Of a stretch of 64,000 bases of DNA, positions 53,990 to 64,000 are shown one piece after another. Origin of the DNA: Hydrurus foetidus. Taxonomy: Eukaryota. The stretch is from assembly GCA_900617105.1 (NCBI GenBank), contig UYFQ01000001.1, positions 62,001 through 126,000 on the forward strand, written 5' to 3'. The notes beneath the pieces were generated by a model. That model made no database searches and had not been told where the DNA came from. It saw only the letters and a list, made by a program, of their open reading frames with translations. Position 1 is the stretch's first letter. Each line of letters opens with the position of its first letter. Position numbers and translations under genes: made by a program.

Positions 53990-54055
53990 GGGGCAAGTTC
54001 TCCAAAGGGTGGAGCCCAGATAGTAGCCTTGAAAAGCGGGGGTGTGCCGCCGTCT

Positions 54056-55411
54056 CTACCCTGGCCGCCCTTTGGTAATCCATTCCTCGGTTTTGCGGAT
54101 ACCGAGTCGGTAGCGGGCGCAGTTGAATGGCTCCAGGCCTTGTAGCTCTTTGCGTAGCAGTGCCAAAAACTCACCCTGGTCGTCTGGTGGCAATGCCAAA
54201 GCGATGCAGGCTTGGTCGGCTCGTGTGTTTTCTTGCACCACTTGCCGCACAGCTTCTCCCAAACTCTCGCGGTAGCGGGCCCGAAAGGGGTCGGGCAAGC
54301 CCATAGATTCGAGGATCACTTTGTACTTGTCGATGGAGCGGCGGTACGTCCACGCAAAAAGCTCAACCGCCATGCGCACATCCAACCGCTCGTAAATGCC
54401 CATGACGGCCAGGGCGTAATCGGTAGATTCCACATCCAAGAAGGACAGCGGTGCGCAGTTGGACAGCATCAGAGGCAGGTTGGCACACAGTCGACTGGTG
54501 CGTTTGTTACCGTCCTCAAACGGTTGCAAGTAGGCGATGTTGACCCATAAGAAAAAGGCCGCCTCCACCGGGTTTTTGATGTGCTGTGATTTTGCGACGA
54601 CGATGTCCAGCATTTCCTCCAGCAGCGTCGGCACTTGTGTGGGCACATACACCGAGTTGGTGATGTTGACCACGGTGGTGCGGATGGCCCCCATCGAGTC
54701 TGCGTTCTCCAGCAGCCCTTGCATCAGCAAACTCTGGATATTGCGCACCACGGCCATGCCAATGCCGTATTCTGGAACGGCATCCACCATGAATTCAATG
54801 GCTTCTTTGTGGTTCAAGAGCATGGTCGCATCCAAGTCATCGCCCGCAGTGCGGCCTTGGGCAAAAAGCGCTTGGGTGTCCAGCAAACTCTTCAGGTTGC
54901 CCTCTAAGCGCGATGAGTGCCACGACAAATCAATCAACAGTTGTTCCAGCACCTTGCGGGCATAGGTGCTGGCAGGCTGTTGCCCTTGGCTGCGACCCAG
55001 TGCAAAAAGCGATTCCGCCACATCCAGCGGAAGCAGCGAAGATTGATTTGGCACGTAGCCGTCCACAAAGTGCCGTTGGTACGTGACGGGTTGGCGTGTG
55101 CCTATAGGCGCTTCAAGCTCCGCACGAAGTCGCGCAGCGGGTGCGCTCCACAGGGGCGCCAGCGCTGCTGCTGCATACTGTGGCGGTGTTGTGCTCTGCG
55201 CAGGTGTGCTGGCCCTGTACCGGGTAGCTGGCCCAGTGCCCCATCTTTCTATCTGACCGCTGCGCACCAATGCAGCCAGGTAGCGGTTGACGGTAGGGCG
55301 CTTTTGGGCGAGTTGCGTGGTGATGTCTTCGGCGCTGGCAGACGCTAAACCCTGTTGAGCGCGGCTGTCCAAATAACGCTGAATGTCGACTGCGATGTGG
55401 ATTTTTGCCAT
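54056..55411 (-). CDS. Fic-domain protein with N-terminal HTH
   Basis: SSRLEGN inhibitory-helix-like motif, Fic loop variant YLQPFEDGNKRTSR, N-terminal wHTH (RPTVNRYLAALVRSGQI). Confidence 0.88.
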   Translation of the reverse strand: MAKIHIAVDIQRYLDSRAQQGLASASAEDITTQLAQKRPTVNRYLAALVRSGQIERWGTGPATRYRASTPAQSTTPPQYAAAALAPLWSAPAARLRAELEAPIGTRQPVTYQRHFVDGYVPNQSSLLPLDVAESLFALGRSQGQQPASTYARKVLEQLLIDLSWHSSRLEGNLKSLLDTQALFAQGRTAGDDLDATMLLNHKEAIEFMVDAVPEYGIGMAVVRNIQSLLMQGLLENADSMGAIRTTVVNITNSVYVPTQVPTLLEEMLDIVVAKSQHIKNPVEAAFFLWVNIAYLQPFEDGNKRTSRLCANLPLMLSNCAPLSFLDVESTDYALAVMGIYERLDVRMAVELFAWTYRRSIDKYKVILESMGLPDPFRARYRESLGEAVRQVVQENTRADQACIALALPPDDQGEFLALLRKELQGLEPFNCARYRLGIRKTEEWITKGRPG

Positions 55412-55498
55412 CGTTAACTTCTCATTTTTGATTTGATTTTGATCTGATAAGTATTATCAAATCATTTTCTTATCAATTCAACGGTGACTCCCAAGAGA

Positions 55499-55770
55499 TC
55501 ATCGCGCTTGCATGGAATCCTCAGCCGTTGCTTCGTCAGCTCTTCGCAGCAATTCCTGCCGCACTGATGCCGCCACAAAATAACCATATACAGCCCACGC
55601 GGCCAAGGCTTGGCTGACCGTGGGCAAGTGGCCCGCACGTTTGAGCGCCAGCAAAACAGCCCCACTGCCCAGCACGGGCACCGCAAGCCGCATTGCCGTA
55701 GCGCGGGCTTTGCGTTCGTCCACCAGCGCAGTCAGCTTGAAATCCGGAATCAGGTCTTGTAGTACATCAA
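55499..55770 (-). pseudogene. DUF3368/PIN-like toxin gene remnant
   Basis: LVDERKARATAMRLAVPVLGSGAVLLALKRAGHL is typical of DUF3368 C-termini; N-terminal PIN part and GE.EA motif are missing. Confidence 0.6.
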
Positions 55771-56039
55771 TTGCTCAGCATTCTTACATCAAAATTAATA
55801 GCTGGCTACGCAATATATTCAAGGTATACAGACTCATTTGATGCATATTCAAAGCCCTAAAACATCTTCTGAATGCCCTTGAAAGTGGCTCATAGCCCAT
55901 GGTGGAAGGTTTGGTAGCCCAAAAACCGCTAAGACATTGATTTTTAACCATTAAAGAAGCTTTTTTAGCTTATCAATACTGCGTATTAAGCTATCAAATT
56001 TGATACTGAAATCAAAGATGTATGTTGCATTGCAAGACC

Positions 56040-56086
56040 CGACCCCAGTGCCTTCGCGACCCCAGTGCCTTCGACCCCAGTGCCTT
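56040..56086 (+). repeat. Three tandem copies of 15-bp CGACCCCAGTGCCTT
   Basis: Copies at 56040-56054, 56057-56071 and 56072-56086. Confidence 0.9.
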
Positions 56087-56088
56087 GG

Positions 56089-56265
56089 TCAAAAATGCCT
56101 GACAAGCGCGATACCCGACGAAAAAGTGTGCTTCAACGGCACACTGCACTTGACTTGAATGCCTGAAACATAGACCGCGTGTGCGTCGATACGCGGCGCA
56201 GATAAAGACATCCAGGAGATATTTGCAGGGGCAGCCCGTGTCGCCTCAAACCGGGCTCGTCCAAC
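56089..56265 (+). mobile_element. Remnant 3' end of a YR+Y2 element (element C)
   Basis: GATATTTGCAG.GG...GTCGCC shared with the region downstream of the element B transposase (63972-64000); ends in CGGGCTCGTCCAAC like the other element termini. Confidence 0.55.
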
Positions 56266-56312
56266 AAACGGTTCAGATCGCGGCAAGCGCGATCTAACCT
56301 TACTCGTTAGGC
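56259..56312 (+). other. attC site (54 bp), top strand apparently +
   Basis: GTCCAAC-AAACG-GTTCAGAT-CGCG..CGCG-ATCTAAC-CTTACTC-GTTAGGC: R'', L'' with extra C, L', R'. Confidence 0.7.
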
Positions 56313-56572
56313 CTCATCGAGCTTGGCTAGTTCGGCGCGGATTTCTTCAAGTTTGGCCTGTTTATTCTCAACAGATTCTGGGCCAGTGACCGAACTTAAA
56401 CCAAGCAGCAGGTAGTAGACGCACCCGATGTAACCGACCAGACCAAGAAGGCTGTTGACCGACCCGAAGATCAGACCAGTTGTTAGCCAGATCAGAGCTT
56501 TGAACAGAGAGCGACTTGCGCGATACAACAACAATGAGACGAACGCGCCTCTCTCCGGGATACCCTTTGCCG

Positions 56573-57981
56573 CATCTCGTTATACACAAATCCCCTGAGC
56601 CAGAAGCTCCCGTGAGAACCTGATCCCAGCAGCGAAGTCAATGATGCGCTGCATACCCAGCCAGATGGTTTTGACACCCGGCTCCCCATCCCCTTTGCGT
56701 GCCAAGAAACCACCCAGACGAGCGACCAGTCGAACCACTTCATTCAGGGTGGGCGGCTTGTCCGGTATCTTTTCTTTGTTCAGGATGTAGGCGGCCTTCC
56801 ATTCATCCGCCTCAAACATGAGTGCCGCATCCATTTCCGGGCAACTGCGCCCCAGTCGCATCAGCCGCGCAATACGCCACGCGACGATCATGTACATCAC
56901 CACCGCACGCTCGATCCTGTCAATGTCGCCCAGCTGCAATGCCTCCACGTGGCAACCGTTCTTGAGGACATGGAAGAACATCTCTATCTCCCAGCGGGCG
57001 CGGTACCAGTCGATCATCTCGGTGGCCTGTGCCAGTGTGGCCACGTCCCGGTTGGTCAGCAGTCGCCATTCGATGGCCGTCTGTCCCGCTGGTGGTGTCA
57101 TCTCGCGTGCCACGATGCAGCTGGCTGTGACAAAGCCGCCTTTGCCGTCGCGCAGTTGCACGGTTTTAGCCCACACCTGTTGCTCTACCTCGCGGGTGGC
57201 TTTGCCCTGTCGCGCAGGCATGGTGAAACGGATCGTGCCCAGGGCTTGGGTGGCCGTTACTTGGGGCCACAGTTTGGCTCCCGCCCCCAGTGCGCGGTTG
57301 TGTTTGGAGCGCACCAGCCAGTCCACCGGGGTTTGGAGTTCGCGGGCACGCACCATTAACTCCATGATGTCGGCCTCGCGGTCTGCCAAGTACACCAGTC
57401 GGGTAAGGGGCAGCAGCGGGGCTATCTCGGCCAGGCGTTCGTAGCCTTCTGTCCAGCGCAAACTCTCGCTGACTCCGGGGCGTGTGCCGTCAGCATTTTT
57501 TGCCTTGCGTGCCCACATCCATGCGTCCAGCACGCCCAGCGGTTCGCGGGTGGTAGAAATGGCGTAGGTGGGGTGCAGGTACATGCCGCGCTGTGGGGCG
57601 TAGCTCAGGGGTCCCAGTCCCGCAGCTTGTTGGCCGTTGAAGTCGAGTTCGGTGGTGTCTTGGATGCACAGCACGACGGGGTGCGCCGCCATACGGGTCA
57701 TGCTGCTTTGGACGTGGGGCTCCAAGATGTCAGTCCATTCGAAGGCATCGTTGTCGAAGAAGCGGTACGCCCCCAAGGTGTCGGCCCAGTCCCCGCAGGC
57801 TTGGGGATGCTACCGGTGGGCATCGCGCTGAAGCCTTCCATCATCTTGATTGCACGTTTGTTGCGCCTCTTGTCGCCCAAATCCATCGTCTCAAACTCCC
57901 TTTTTGCCCAGTTCACTTGTGTTTCATGCTATTAAATTCGCAGCATACCTTAGGCTCGGGAGAGTTGTGTATAACGAGATG
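56573..57981 (-). mobile_element. IS4-family, IS50/Tn5-like insertion sequence (1409 bp)
   Basis: 19-bp IRs CATCTCGTTATACACAAAT / CATCTCGTTATACACAACT; 9-bp TSD CCTTTGCCG at 56564-56572 and 57982-57990. Confidence 0.92.
56580..57916 (-). pseudogene. IS4-family DDE transposase with a frameshift near 57803
   Basis: WAKREF..DLGDKRR N-terminus in one frame; YRFF, QDTTE, DREAD, YRARWEIEMFF..LK and LGGFL..K.DGEPG in another. Confidence 0.85.
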
Positions 57982-58206
57982 CCTTTGCCGCTAGGACGTT
58001 GTATTTGATTTGCTGCTCAAGCAAGTAGTGGCGCCTTCGTTCTTTCGAGATGGCAGAGACTCTTCGCTGTGCGGCAGAGAAGACTCGTTGCCCGAAATAG
58101 ACAGTTGTGGCGAAGAGAGCAGATCCCAGCGCGCCTTGAATGATGACGGGTAGGTCGGTAATCGCGGAGTAGAGCTTGTCGAGCATGTGCGGAGTGTGAC
58201 TATGAG

Positions 58207-58269
58207 GCCTAACGTCTGAGTTCAGAGGCGCGCCGATGTTGGCGTGTCCGTTGAAACGAAAAGTTATAC
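58207..58269 (-). other. attC site (63 bp)
   Basis: Minus strand GTATAAC-TTTTC-GTTTCAAC...TCTGAAC-TCAGAC-GTTAGGC with 5/6-nt spacers, directly after the HNH stop; + strand folds with G-T pairs. Confidence 0.85.
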
Positions 58270-58270
58270 A

Positions 58271-58939
58271 TCATTTGCTAGCGCCTTTGCCGCGATTGCA
58301 ATCAAAACAAAGGGTTTGCAAATTTTCTTCAATAGTCTCACCACCGTTTGACCATGGCGTAATATGATCGATCTCCAGCGTTAATCCCGGTACGTGGTTC
58401 TGTGTTCGCCCACACACAACACAACGGAAGTTGTCTCTTTTCATTACCAAAAATCTCAGACTTAAAGAAGGGTCACGTTGTGTTCTTTTAGAACTTCCCT
58501 TGAGCTTAAGTTCTGCCTCGTAGCTAATGACTTCATCTTGTTCTTTATTGACATATGCCACGAATTCCTCAAGTGCTTTATTCCAACTTCCGAAACGAAT
58601 TTGGTAGGTTTGCCCTGTGTATCGAGATGGCTCAATCGCGAGATCTCGATAGACTGGTTGTTTTCCTTTTGAAATCCAAACGTTTTTTAAATTGTCAAAT
58701 AAATCTACCAATGAAATATTTTTTTCTTCAATAACGTCAATGCCCGCTCTTTGCAAACCACTATTCCAGGTGCCGAATCTAATTTGAATCGTTCCGGAGG
58801 AATATTTACCTAACTCCCCATAAGCACGATTGGTAAGGCGTTTCCCTTGTACTTTGAGTCTCGTATCGACTGTCCTCAAGTCCTGCAGGAGCTCGTCATC
58901 CGTAACATTGCGATTGAAAGTGTCGAGTTCAAATTTCAC
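58271..58939 (-). CDS. HNH endonuclease with two N-terminal homing-endonuclease-associated repeats (gene cassette)
   Basis: Repeats RFGTWNSGL / RFGSWNKAL; RDNFRCVVCG...EIDHITPWSNGGETIEENLQTLCFDCNRGK; AT-rich. Confidence 0.88.
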   Translation of the reverse strand: MKFELDTFNRNVTDDELLQDLRTVDTRLKVQGKRLTNRAYGELGKYSSGTIQIRFGTWNSGLQRAGIDVIEEKNISLVDLFDNLKNVWISKGKQPVYRDLAIEPSRYTGQTYQIRFGSWNKALEEFVAYVNKEQDEVISYEAELKLKGSSKRTQRDPSLSLRFLVMKRDNFRCVVCGRTQNHVPGLTLEIDHITPWSNGGETIEENLQTLCFDCNRGKGASK

Positions 58940-58956
58940 TGGGCATTCCTAATGAT

Positions 58957-59041
58957 GTATAACAATCAGCGTTTATCCGCCGCGCCACAAAGGCCAGCCA
59001 AGAGCGAGAACATTGAACGCGGGGGATAAACCATGTTGGAC
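58957..59041 (-). other. attI-like or atypical att site (85 bp)
   Basis: Minus strand GTCCAAC-ATG-GTTTATCC...GGATAAAC-GCTGATT-GTTATAC; inverted GTTTATCC/GGATAAAC, spacers 3 and 7 nt, unpaired centre. Confidence 0.5.
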
Positions 59042-59333
59042 TGAACCGCCCGTGATGCGGTCAATTGAGGGTTGTTTGAACCATAGGGGATTTCAATTTC
59101 TGCACCCCCTGTGGTAAGTATTGTGACCCCAGTGACAGTGCATTTTGAACGTGAATATTACCTAAATCACCCTCATTGCGGCGACAGTTGACACCCTACA
59201 AAGCGAGTTGCACCGCAGGCCAATGCTGCGTTGATCTTGCCCCCTTCGTTGGCACACGTCTACCCGCACCAAGGCCCAAGCCCTGATGAAGCCACGCCCA
59301 CTTGGGCAGCGCCCGTCAACCCGGTTCCCACGC

Positions 59334-60533
59334 TCATGGCGGCCCCCTGGGTTGCGCCACGCCTTCATGCCCATCGCCGGGCAACGGTAAATGCCGCATG
59401 CCTCCCAACGTGGCCACCACGCGCAATCTCCCGTCCGTGCAACACGGGCAGTGCAACACCTGCACCTTCGCCACCCGCGCCATGAAGGCCGTGGCAGACT
59501 CCAGGGCATGCGCGTTGGGTTGTGGCATGTGCAAAGCCAGCCGAGCCTGGGCCAGGCTGTCGCCCTTGCACGCACTGGCCAACACCCCATAGTGGCGAAT
59601 GCGCTTGATGCCCGTGGGCAAGATGTGCAGCATGAAGCGCCGGATGAACTCCGCGCCTTCGAGCCTGGTGGTGCGCTTGCCACCCTGCGCATCGGCCCGG
59701 ACCATGAACACCACCTCATCCGGGGTGACGGCCTTGATGCGCTCGTTGCCAATCGCCGTGCGGTGCGTATAGCGGCTCAAATAGTCCAGCACCTGGGCGG
59801 GGCCTCCCAGCGGGGTCTTGGCATACACCACCCAGTCGTGCTTGTAGAGCCGGCGTTGGCGTTGCGCCCAGGCTTGCGGCTGGCCTTGTGGGTCATGCTC
59901 CAGCTTGTCTGAGCGGTGCGCCTGAGCCAGCGCCGACAAGCATTTGCCCCGGAATACTTTGGAGAGCGCATGCACGGGGAACAAGAAGTCGGGCTTTCGC
60001 GCAGGCGCATGCCACTGCCCGTTTTGCGCCAGCACCCCGCAGGCCATCACCGCATGCACGTGGATGTGCTGGCGCAAGTCCTGCGTCCAAGTGTGCAGCG
60101 CCAAGCTGAACGCGGGTTTACCATCCGCCACGCCCATCCACCTCGGGTTAACGGCGAATTCGCTCAAGGTCTGGGCTGTGCAGCTAAACAGGGTGTCAAT
60201 CACCCAGCGCGGGTGTGCCCCGTAAAGCCCGTTCAGGCTGTGCGGCAAGGTGAACACCAGGTGGGCATACGGCACGGGCAACACCTCGGCCAGTCTGCCT
60301 TGCAGCCACGCATCCTTGGAGCGGCTGCCGCACTGTGGGCAGTGCCGGTTGCGACACGAGTGGTATTGCCAGTGGCTGTGACCACAGGCGTCGCAGGCCA
60401 ACCTCTCGCCGCCCAGGGCGGCTGTGCGGCACGCCGCAATGCCCCGCCACGCCTTGGCTTGCGGCGTGTTCAGGCTGTGCTCGCGCAAATACGCTGCGCC
60501 ATGCCGGCGCAGCACATCGGCCAATGTGGCCAC
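59334..60533 (-). CDS. IS91-family (Y2 HUH) transposase
   Basis: Zn-binding CRT...CDAC...SCRNRHCPQC, HUH motif HIHVH, YLSRY. Confidence 0.93.
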   Translation of the reverse strand: MATLADVLRRHGAAYLREHSLNTPQAKAWRGIAACRTAALGGERLACDACGHSHWQYHSCRNRHCPQCGSRSKDAWLQGRLAEVLPVPYAHLVFTLPHSLNGLYGAHPRWVIDTLFSCTAQTLSEFAVNPRWMGVADGKPAFSLALHTWTQDLRQHIHVHAVMACGVLAQNGQWHAPARKPDFLFPVHALSKVFRGKCLSALAQAHRSDKLEHDPQGQPQAWAQRQRRLYKHDWVVYAKTPLGGPAQVLDYLSRYTHRTAIGNERIKAVTPDEVVFMVRADAQGGKRTTRLEGAEFIRRFMLHILPTGIKRIRHYGVLASACKGDSLAQARLALHMPQPNAHALESATAFMARVAKVQVLHCPCCTDGRLRVVATLGGMRHLPLPGDGHEGVAQPRGPP

Positions 60534-60565
60534 GATGCGGGTCTATACGTTGGTTTGGAGTTTGC

Positions 60566-61450
60566 CTACAGCTTGGGCAGGCCAGCCAGCAGGTCCAGTG
60601 GATTCACATCCTTGGGTGGGCAAAACTGCGGACTGATGAGGTGCAAGTAGCGGCTGGTGGTGCTGATGTGGCCGTGTCCGAGCAAGCGGCTGATGGTGTA
60701 CAGGTCCACGCCGCCTTCGAGCAAGTGGGTGGCAAAGCAGTGGCGCAAGGTGTGGGTGCTGCCGTGCTTGTTGATGCCTGCGCCGCGGCGGGCCTTATGG
60801 TAGGCACGCTGGATGTTGTCAACGTAGACCGGAGCATCGAAGCGGGTGTTGGGGAACAGCCAGCGTTCGGGGTTGCGGGTACGTCGGTGCACGGCATGAA
60901 CGGTGCAATAGGTACGCAGTTGGTCAAGCAGGCTCAGACCCAGAACCGTGTAGCGGTCACCACCGCCTTTGCCTGCGCAGACACGTACGCACATGCGGTC
61001 GGTGGCACTGTCGATGTCGTGCAGGCGTAGGCTGCAGGCCTCGGTCACGCGCAGGCCGGTGGCATAGATGGTCATCAGCACCATGCGGTAGATGGGCTGG
61101 ATGCAGTTGGCAAACAGGCACGCAATCTCCTGGCGCGATAACAGCTCGGGCTGCTTCTGGGGCACTGGGCCGATGGGTGGGCGCAGGTGTCCTTCGGTCT
61201 TGCGACCCAGAATTGTCTCCAACAGGAAGCGGCTGGCGCTTGCGGCCTGATTGACGCTGCTGTAAGAGAGCTGACCATCCTTTATCAGGTGAAGAAAGTA
61301 GGCTTCGATCTCGGCACTGGAAAGCAGCTCGGGGCTGCGGCTGTAGTAGCGTGCCATTCGGGCGATGGCCTCAACGTAGCACTCCTGCGTGCGCTCTGAA
61401 AAACCACGGACAATCATGGCGTCGAGCATGCGTTGGCGTAAGGGGGTCAT
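60566..61450 (-). CDS. Tyrosine recombinase (XerD-like with SAM-like N domain; not IntI)
   Basis: YATGLR, GKGG.DR, HTLRH, LGH, TSRY; lacks the IntI-specific insertion before LFP. Confidence 0.92.
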   Translation of the reverse strand: MTPLRQRMLDAMIVRGFSERTQECYVEAIARMARYYSRSPELLSSAEIEAYFLHLIKDGQLSYSSVNQAASASRFLLETILGRKTEGHLRPPIGPVPQKQPELLSRQEIACLFANCIQPIYRMVLMTIYATGLRVTEACSLRLHDIDSATDRMCVRVCAGKGGGDRYTVLGLSLLDQLRTYCTVHAVHRRTRNPERWLFPNTRFDAPVYVDNIQRAYHKARRGAGINKHGSTHTLRHCFATHLLEGGVDLYTISRLLGHGHISTTSRYLHLISPQFCPPKDVNPLDLLAGLPKL

Positions 61451-61579
61451 GAGAACTCTCCTGTGAACCGGGGAACATTCCCCAGGCTGAAGGGTTCTCC
61501 TCAATGCCTGACTGCGCAAGCGCGGTACACAAAGCATAACGCGGTGGCGGCCTTCGCAGGCCACCGCGTCAGCGGTTTA

Positions 61580-61646
61580 GTTCAACGCCAAAGTTAACGG
61601 GCGGCAATGCGAAGCATTGACGTCCCTGTTGAACGACCGGTTGGAC
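61580..61646 (-). other. attC site (67 bp) between the two divergent elements
   Basis: Minus strand GTCCAAC-CGGTC-GTTCAAC...CAATGC TTC GCATTG...GTTAAC-TTTGGC-GTTGAAC; 5/6-nt spacers, extra C in L''. Confidence 0.85.
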
Positions 61647-61759
61647 GAAGCCGCTACGCGGAGCGGGAGCGGCGCGAGGGCCATCGGTGAATTCGTAAGC
61701 TGTAGGCGCATGCCGCAATTGTGAGGCATGTTGACCTTCAACTTCACTGGAGTTTGCCC

Positions 61760-62691
61760 ATGTCCACCCATCCCGGCGGCTTTGACCCCGTTGCCTTTCC
61801 TGAACCCTTTTCCAGCGCGTACCGCACCCACTTGCAGCACCTCAAGCTCAAAGGCCTGCAACCCAAAACCATTGACGCCTATGCCCGTGCCATCCGGCGC
61901 ATGGGCGACTACTTTGATTTCCGGCTTGATGTGTTGACCCCCGCACAACTCACCGATTACTTCAGCGACCTGATCGCCTCCCACTCGTGGAGCGCCGTCA
62001 AGCTTGACCTCTATGGCTTCAAGTTCTACACCCTGCACGTGCTGGGCAAACCCTGGGCCATGCCCAACTTCATCAAACCGCCCAAGGTGCAGCGCCTGCC
62101 CGACATCGTCACCGTCGAAGAAGCGCAAACCCTGTTCATGGCCACGCGGGTCTTGAGCTACCGGGTGTTCTACTTCACCGTTTACAGCATGGGCCTGCGC
62201 CTGAGCGAAGGCCTGGCCTTGAAGGTCAGTGACATTGATGCGGTACGCCAGCGCGTGCACATACGCGACTCCAAAGGCAACCGCGACCGCTTCGTGCCAC
62301 TGCCCGTCATGACCCTGGATGTGCTGCGTCGCTTTTGGCAAACCCACCGCAACCCTGAGTTGCTGTTCCCCAACCGCTTGGGCGGCCTGGCGGGGGCGCA
62401 TGCGGCACGCACGCCCCTAGACCGAGGCGGCGTGCAAAAGACGCTGCATCAAGTCACGCTGGATTGCGGCCTAAAAAAAAGATCACTCCGCACAGCCTGC
62501 GCCACAGCTATGCCACGCACCTGATCGAAGCCGGGGTAGATCTGCTGGAAGTGCAGAAGATTCTGGGCCACCACAGCATCCTCACCACCACCCGTTACAC
62601 CCACCTGACGCACGGCACCCACACGCAAGCCAGCACGAAGATCGAAACCCTGATGGGCCGCTTCCATCTCGATTGGGCGGGTGTCAAATGA
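61760..62691 (+). CDS. Tyrosine recombinase needing a -1 shift at A8 (62473-62480)
   Basis: YSMGLR and SKGNRDR in frame 0; [17 protein letters not shown] and TTRY in the -1 frame. Confidence 0.8.
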
Positions 62692-63797
62692 TCCCGCTTG
62701 TCCATCTCATCGAGCGCTTTGGCGCGGACTACCTCAGCCAATACCCCCGGTGCGCCGCTCACCCACAACGCCAAGCGCTCAACGCCATGCGGCGCTGCCG
62801 CACCGCCTTGGCCCCGTGCATGCTGGCCCAGTGTGGTGACTGTGGCGAACAACGTGTCGTGCCGCATTCTTGCGGTCACCGCAATTGTCCGCACTGCCAG
62901 CACCATGAGAGCCAAGCTTGGACAGAGCGACAAACTAAAGCGCTGGTGCCGGGCAACTACTTTCTGATCACGTTCACTTTGCCCGCAGAACTGAGAGCGC
63001 TGGCGTGGCAGCACCAACGTGTCGTCTACACCGCCTTGATGGATTGCGCCTGGCAGACGCTACGCACGTTCAGCCAGAACCACCGACAGTTGCAAGGCAC
63101 GCCTGGTGCCGTGGCCGTGCTGCACACGCATTCGCGGCAATTGGAATTCCATCCCCATGTGCACATGGTCATGCCAGGGGCAGCGCTGGATGCCGACAAG
63201 GGTCTGTGGCGCAGCTTGCGCCGCAGTAGCAAAGGCAAGGGCTATTTGTTTAATCACGAGGCCTTGGCCAAAGTGTTTCGCGGCAAGTTCTTGTCGGCTT
63301 TGCGCGATCAAGGTTTGAGTATTCCAAACAACTTGCCCAAAGACTGGGTGGTCGATTGCAAGGGGGTGGGCGATGGCAAGAAGGCCTTGGTCTATCTGGG
63401 GCGCTACTTGTACCGAGGGGTGATTCAGGAGAAAGACATCCTGCGTTGCGACGAAAAAACCGTGACGTACCGCTGGCGGGACAGCAAGACCCAGAAGATG
63501 GCCACACGCACCGTCAGCGGCGCAGAGTTTTTGCGGCTGGTGTTACAGCACGTCTTGCCCAAAGGCTTCAGGCGAGCGCGTAACTTTGGCTTCCTGCACC
63601 CCAACAGCAAGCGGCTGATTGCACTGCTGAAGTTGCTGGTGTTCAAGCGGGCAAACGCAGCGCCAGCAAACGCAACACCTCGAGCACAATGGACATGCGC
63701 CTGTTGTGGCGGCGCGATGACGGTCATTCGGCGGCGCATCACGACACCCCCAAAAGCGCCGCCAAGCGCACCAAGTGAGGCCTGCACGAGCCAGTAA
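62688..63797 (+). CDS. IS91-family (Y2 HUH) transposase
   Basis: CRT...CGDC...[21 protein letters not shown]-terminal CACCG. Confidence 0.93.
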
Positions 63798-64000
63798 TTC
63801 TCAAAGCATCATCGGCCCCGGCAGTGCCCAGTTGGTGCTGTGTCAGCGCTCGGCCAAAAACAGCAACAGCACCTTGCTTTGCTTGATCTCAGGTGCCGCA
63901 ACGCCACCCTCTACGTAGTCGCCATCACGCAGGCGCTACGCAAACACACATTCCACCGGGGACTTCAAAAAGATATTTGCAGTGGGCGAGAAGCGTCGCC

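Follow-up and report, generated by a model that had tools for sequence, protein, structure and literature searches.

The window analyzed here, a 64,000-nucleotide (nt) stretch of Hydrurus foetidus contig UYFQ01000001.1, carries two gene pairs toward its right end, A on the − strand and B on the + strand, each consisting of a tyrosine recombinase gene followed by an IS91-type transposase gene. Proteins of the window were assigned by domain profiles, and open reading frames (ORFs) and the raw sequence were used for the remaining features. In both pairs, Phage_int_SAM_4 and Phage_integrase domains are followed by Zn_Tnp_IS91 and Y2_Tnp, in agreement with the original prediction made from this DNA. 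The A recombinase (60566–61450, −; 294 amino acids (aa)) is IntI-like and lacks the IntI-specific insertion, and the A transposase (59334–60533, −; 399 aa) is an IS91-family HUH Y2 enzyme with its HUH and YxxRY motifs intact. The B recombinase gene (61760–62691, +) is split between two frames: frame 0 reaches a stop at 62524 after 254 aa with neither H-x-x-R nor Y, and the catalytic end lies in the −1 frame. Its final stop overlaps the start of the B transposase, also an IS91-family HUH Y2 protein (62688–63797, +; 369 aa). Besides A and B, the region contains two host cassettes, one with an HNH gene and one interrupted by an IS4-family element, as well as a remnant (C) resembling the 3′ end of B.

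The two pairs meet on a single host attC (61580–61646, −; 67 nt, canonical 5/8/7/6 spacing), which takes its R′ from A and its R″ from B. The A 5′ end (61564–61586, −) comprises an R′-type core and a short terIS-like palindrome, and the B 5′ end (61640–61661, +) an R-type core with a palindrome of the same kind. Remnant C (56088–56308, +), which matches the B-type 3′ end of homologs, is a lineage-B 3′ end that has lost its 5′ part and sits backwards at the R″ (56306–56312) of a host cassette, X (56306–58212, −; from sequence and ORFs). The four terminal strings quoted in the original prediction were recovered at their positions and on their strands, and each of their heptamers is indeed the R box of an att-like hairpin. 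No intI gene was found within the 64-kb window, and an Rfam scan of 54000–64000 returned 0 matches.

The element ends were defined from 151 homologous loci, 71 related to the A transposase (from GTDB genomes) and the best 80 of 344 related to the B transposase (from metagenomes). In both lineages the 5′ end is sharp, with a variable flank up to GTT and conservation from there on; among distinct 5′ junctions located with search patterns that did not require GTT, 50 of 53 (A) and 68 of 71 (B) start with it, which exceeds chance. The distal end is the R′ GTT of a hairpin belonging to the element itself (among distinct ends, 41 of 43 for A and 49 of 51 for B), about 50–80 bases beyond the 3′ GTCCAAC. 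Because conservation stops at this GTT, A spans 61586 to about 58961, and the end of C lies at about 56308. Of the four heptamers proposed as element ends, the two 5′ ones thus hold, whereas the two 3′ GTCCAAC heptamers (59035–59041 in A, 56259–56265 in C) are the R″ boxes of element-owned hairpins, and the 3′ end is a whole private attC-like hairpin rather than a mere R box. Each element is a cassette-shaped unit, made up of a GTT start, a recombinase, an HUH transposase, and a private attC-like site at its end.

The private hairpin of A (58961–59041, −) has its R″ at 59035–59041 and its R′ GTT at 58961–58963, an L stem without a bulge, asymmetric spacers, and invariant box sequences. That of C (56259–56308, +), conserved and covarying across lineage B, consists of R″ (56259–56265), L″ with the canonical extra base, L′, and an R′ GTT at 56306–56308, with the lineage-B spacing 5/8/7/7. 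Among the adjoining hairpins originally taken for att sites, 61580–61646 alone is therefore a host attC, and 56259–56308 is C's own, on the + strand. Compensatory changes occur in 6 of 12 stem pairs in B (25 sequences) and 3 of 17 in A (26 sequences), counts that kinship can inflate. Both lineages also carry a conserved internal motif at an oriIS-like position (59083–59097, − in A; 56217–56227, + in C) that may act as an oriIS; compared with the ISCR1 end by eye, it lies 90–120 nt short of the element end, which is the R′ box of the hairpin; that the homologs do not end at the motif supports the original prediction. At the 5′ ends of both lineages, a palindrome lies beside GTTC or GTCC on the bottom strand and resembles terIS in sequence. 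Natural head-to-tail junctions (L013, L072, L081, and L120) fold as a single long hairpin whose R stem is extended; in this fold, the two end differences of A become G-T pairs on the bottom strand only. As for B, contigs of runs X1 and X2 join 63994 to 56240 and have a loose end at 56087; the B end hence lies shortly beyond the window and shares its 3′ sequence with C, and the last bases of the window (63971–64000, +) are its 3′ subterminal region carrying the lineage-B motif.

The two lineages follow distinct target rules. All target classes given here come from a strict attC detector, with GTT sites in the flanks as background, unless another detector is named. In 17 of 41 distinct B left flanks, the element sits at the R″ of an attC read backwards (background 84 of 2000, P about 1e-12); the others comprise 21 flanks with no call, 2 direct, and 1 tandem. 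A relaxed detector, for which there is no null, assigned 68 flanks as 29 inverted, 23 none, 5 direct, 5 own, and 6 short. On the right flank of B, a converging stop codon lies within 40 nt in 19 of 28 cases (background 441 of 3000). Among 23 B sites lacking a hairpin call, 17 have an L″-like A at −8 (background 20.6%), a hint that B may read an R″-L″ half site, for which degenerate attC sites could also account.

In A flanks, an attC was called in just 2 of 39. Seven A loci lie 134–158 nt from a divergent intI (one intI above the NCBIfam cut-off, the others partial, split, or tblastn matches), and a matrix built from these intI-adjacent flanks scored 9 of 34 other A flanks as attI-like, compared with 0 of 42 from B. 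Beyond the A element, a forward ORF comes next in 23 of 35 cases (background 1106 of 3000). The label “RIT-like,” first put on many A flanks, was ruled out; these flanks are attI or attI-like. Joining the flanks across the element kept a reading frame open in 5 of 54 cases. A is inserted in the sense of the array, forwards at attI or R′, with attI and attI-like sites the most frequent, and B, together with remnant C, lies reversed at the R″ of a host attC. The predicted att targeting thus stands as an enrichment, and no common rule unites the lineages. The arrangement of the window also occurs in another genome (L018), where the R″ of one attC is occupied by a B 5′ end and its R′ by an A 5′ end. 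For two copies, ISAzo26 (L220, 1430–1455) and one in genome G002 (L183, near 2984), the insertion site is a palindrome belonging to neither the attI nor the attC class; the L220 element has ATT as its right core and is followed by a further tyrosine recombinase gene. The beginning of an intI gene at L049 (near 4927) contains an A-type 5′ end, on a contig that stops short of the 3′ end.

The precision of insertion is seen in an Escherichia coli plasmid (NZ_LT985243), in which a B-lineage element lies backwards between aadA1 and qacEdelta1, within the aadA1 attC. Compared with the empty allele in NC_004998, 300 of 300 bases agree on the left and 398 of 400 on the right, with TTGTT at both junctions, and the insertion is exact. 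A second E. coli plasmid (NZ_AP018145) carries an A-lineage element forwards at the R′ of the aac(6′)-IIa attC, before aadA4, where the left junction was compared with another array; neither E. coli element had a match in the complete E. coli genome set. The exchange falls within the shared GTT core, and three right-end variants (L044, L124, and L128) favor a cut at G|TT, with two left-end variants pointing elsewhere. The reported absence of a target-site duplication (TSD) holds for a classical TSD, and a GTT core is nevertheless present at both junctions. Together with the homologous loci, the empty allele bears out the prediction of cassette-like elements that exchange within the GTT core and are enriched at att sites. 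For the further suggestion that such elements build the cassette array, no evidence was found.

Mobility, likewise predicted, finds support in genome G001, where five A copies that are >99.6% identical occupy five sites. A copies stand in tandem at attI in genome G003 and in tandem arrays next to intI (L187), and genome G291 has five B 5′ ends. In contigs of runs X1 and X2, B is covered 4–5 times more deeply than A, which hints at more copies without giving a copy number; the same runs have loose ends at 61586–61634 that represent further A-type and B-type 5′ junctions with other flanks. A 0.63-kb unit (L186, G005:C9:51551-52115) has both A-type ends and its own hairpin, carries neither gene, and sits at attI beside an intact intI; it is likely a non-autonomous derivative. 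Genome G002 contains many solo A-type 3′ ends with hairpins, as well as one 5′ end inside a transposase gene that we take, by eye, to be IS66-like. In Bacteroidota, a Myroides plasmid (L222, NZ_CP013691) shows several recombinase + Y2 elements with the same end layout, alternating with catB, aadS, and long hairpins.

Both transposases score far above the cut-off of NF033538 (397 bits for A and 375 for B, cut-off 125), and among elements with both ends, 36 of 43 (A) and 32 of 38 (B) have an intact Y2. The recombinases score 171 (A) and 73 (B) bits against TIGR02249, the IntI profile, below its cut-off of 265. The best structure match of the A recombinase is VchIntIA (PDB: 2A3V), relative to which about 35 residues are missing at the IntI-specific insertion, the part that acts on folded attC; a single-sequence fold prediction of the A recombinase reached a predicted local distance difference test (pLDDT) score of 41 and was not used. 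In a tree of 37 rows (8 of 46 A and 10 of 43 B rows, the window, and references), A, B, IntI, and Xer each form one group, with weak deep forks. Of 51 A recombinase genes examined, 46 are single ORFs, and 40 of these retain the catalytic motifs; so do 44 of 44 B genes whose first part is open. Judged by profile score, the gap against 2A3V, and the separate clades, the element recombinase is, as had been proposed, not an IntI.

A feature missed by the original prediction is a conserved frame break in the lineage-B recombinase. Measured from the catalytic R to H-x-x-R, 45 of 48 distinct B-lineage sequences are one base shorter than an unbroken frame would require. The break is a run of A residues immediately before the catalytic H-x-x-R and Y (62473–62480, + in the window), exactly A8 in 42 of 46 sequences and spanned with no gap by the X1/X2 contig. 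The codon preceding the run is CTA, ATA, or TTA; elsewhere, in this set selected for A8, Leu and Ile codons end in A at 57 of 1501 positions. Ratios of nonsynonymous to synonymous change are 0.23 for the first part and 0.18 for the second in their own frames and 5.5–14 in other frames, by which measure both parts are under purifying selection. All 120 of the database proteins closest to the short form lack the catalytic end, and 112 of them share one 14-residue tail. More distant, in-frame relatives (L116, L131, L132, L136, L150, and L221) have no such A run. No stimulatory stem-loop was found after the A8 run (median z −0.65).

The sequence A_AAA_AAA and A runs longer than seven are known recoding signals in insertion sequence genes (PMC3711429). 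Given this, the conserved break at A8, the conservation of both frames, and the absence of the run from in-frame relatives, the B recombinase is likely made through programmed recoding at A8, by frameshifting or by transcription slippage. The recoded transposases of IS1, IS3, and IS630 share the A-run signal; there, however, recoding sits in the transposase, whereas here the break lies in a tyrosine recombinase just before its catalytic residues. The words “integrase” and “recombinase” are absent from the main text of PMC3711429 and PMC4066793; the supplements of the latter may list the frameshift.

We consider it fairly probable that A, B, and C are copies of two IS91-related, cassette-like lineages that integrate themselves at integron GTT cores by means of their own tyrosine recombinase. 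The HUH enzyme would nick at GTTC or GTCC beside the 5′ palindrome, using the oriIS-like internal motif as well, and would release or amplify a bottom-strand circle, as for IS91, for which such a circle is described as the active intermediate (PMC13181058). In the circle, the joined ends would form a full hairpin whose R stem is long, and the element recombinase would then exchange one strand with the target at GTT in the fashion of IntI. B would take the R″-spacer-L″ half of a host attC as its target, so that an attC is rebuilt and B rides inside the cassette. Slippage at A8 would limit the amount of active B recombinase and give a shorter, non-catalytic form.

Several points weigh against this proposal. 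Unlike the element ends, the private hairpin, the exchange within the shared GTT, the lineage-specific targets, the precision of insertion, the multi-copy spread, and the conserved B frame break, all of which are observed, integration by the recombinase, the role of the HUH enzyme, and the circle are proposed from sequence. The targets are IntI's own sites, and forward insertion of A at attI is the standard IntI reaction. The insertion that IntI uses on folded attC is absent from the element recombinases, and the small tree gives them no supported placement as sisters of IntI. Folding of the joined ends on the bottom strand is favored by just 0.5–2.7 kcal/mol. Left-end variants (L030 and L031), which keep GAAC and lose GTT, speak for a different cut position from that favored by the right-end variants. 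The detectors used leave 21 of 41 B flanks, and over half of those of A, without an att class. Of the genomes that carry A, most of them incomplete, 23 of 50 have an IntI above the cut-off, as do 4 of 5 of those that carry B, an occurrence that neither proves nor excludes dependence of the elements on IntI.

On the main alternative, although we think it unlikely for the system as a whole, host IntI integrates the elements, which would be selfish cassettes with HUH-amplified circles, and their own recombinase only excises, resolves dimers, or regulates. This reading fits lineage A best and is most plausible there: A stands forwards at attI, in tandem arrays beside intI, and between ordinary class 1 integron cassettes, IntI is present in about half of the host genomes, and the right flank conforms to GTTRRRY at 16 of 43 ends in A and at 25 of 50 in B. 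The B hairpin, too, keeps the canonical extra base, but B goes in backwards at R″. IntI favors recombination of the bottom strand, by which inverted insertion is avoided (PMC5027507), and B therefore argues for a private enzyme. The A hairpin for its part lacks an L-stem bulge and has invariant boxes, and the complete genome G002 holds a full A copy without any IntI, though an intI could have been lost there. Nor would host integration account readily for a recombinase that is kept under purifying selection and carries a conserved recoding site.

Less probable still, in our view, is insertion of the circle by the HUH transposase itself, through strand transfer at a re-evolved target (GTT in att sites), with the recombinase an accessory like Orf121 of IS91. 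The frequency of intact Y2 noted above would be expected on this reading, as would the left-end variants that lose GTT and keep GAAC, and the 5′ end, where a palindrome adjoins a bottom-strand GTTC or GTCC, is terIS-like (PMC13181058). The same source gives CTTG, GTTC, and GTCC as the IS91 target; such a tetranucleotide comes after the right end in 0 of 42 A and 1 of 49 B elements. The exchange moreover takes place at an IntI-type core, the element extends past the oriIS-like motif to the hairpin R′ box, and an accessory role leaves the intact catalytic residues of the recombinase unexplained. Finally, that the att links are incidental and the B recombinase is a pseudogene or a homopolymer assembly error seems very improbable: A runs are error-prone and at least one indel in the window (57802) is likely an error, but the shared one-base deficit, the uniform A8 length, the conservation of both parts in their own frames, the uniformly short closest proteins, and the in-frame relatives without an A run already largely refute it.

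Carried further, self-integration would make these elements a widespread class of self-propelled cassettes, in which a rolling-circle single strand is combined with an IntI-like integrator lacking the insertion, targets are split between attI and attC R″, and one lineage is throttled by programmed slippage into catalytic and non-catalytic forms; this fuller picture we offer tentatively. If true, such a class would link IS91 transposition to integron recombination, offer a model for how attC and IntI arose, and be present in clinical class 1 integrons. If the recombinase does act on a folded single strand without the IntI insertion, single-strand site-specific recombination would not be confined to integrons. 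Since two public E. coli plasmids carry one lineage each in class 1 resistance integrons, the elements can enter clinical arrays. The conserved recoding site suggests, in addition, that many database entries annotated as “truncated XerD-like” are likely parts of working genes.

The combination of a recombinase with a Y2 gene is already catalogued, in ISAzo26 (Aromatoleum), ISShvi3, and ISWz1. ISAzo26 has the same gene order, 5′ end, 3′ GTCCAAC, and terminal hairpin as A, and its recombinase groups with lineage A. The position of ISShvi3 beside an attC has been noted as a new cassette structure (PMC9229058). For ISAzo26-type elements, the literature text available to us describes neither the ends, the private hairpin, and the target rule nor the frameshift, and the papers searched give no account of what the recombinase does; the search covered few subscription papers and neither ISfinder nor TnPedia. 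With defined ends, targets, and an empty allele, this role becomes directly testable. New from this window are the presence of both lineages on one attC, the side-by-side target rules, and the conserved recoding site.

With IS91, IS801, IS1294, and ISCR, the elements share a Y2 HUH transposase, a terIS-like palindrome with GTTC or GTCC, an oriIS-like internal motif, and the lack of a classical TSD; they differ in having an attC-like hairpin rather than oriIS as the right end, in failing the tetranucleotide rule in 90 of 91 cases, and in carrying a tyrosine recombinase. Like integron cassettes, they start with GTT, end in a hairpin of R″, L″, L′, and R′ with R boxes that pair on joining, exchange at GTT, and insert at attI or attC. 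Unlike such cassettes, they own a recombinase, which is not an IntI, and a transposase, their hairpin is conserved in sequence, with 7-nt (B) or asymmetric (A) spacers and an extended R stem, and B is reversed in the array. The IS1111-attC group uses an IS110-type transposase and class C-attC group II introns use retrohoming, and we know of no private attC-like end in either. Both groups are attC parasites as well, the introns being oppositely oriented (PMC9229058).

The remaining features of the window surround A and C. Downstream of the private hairpin of A lies a host cassette gene encoding an HNH endonuclease with HNH_repeat (58271–58939, −; domain profiles), followed by the host attC of this cassette (58207–58269, −; 63 nt), which the detector scores as a direct attC. 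The gene of cassette X is interrupted by an IS4-family element of the Tn5-type DDE group (56573–57981, −), an unrelated passenger with 17-bp inverted ends and a 9-bp TSD (56564–56572 and 57982–57990). The frameshift at 57802 within this element is not present in contigs of three runs and is likely an assembly error. Three short direct repeats occupy 56036–56090, where remnant C breaks off. Just outside the array lies a Fic-domain gene (54056–55411), with a DUF3368 fragment upstream.

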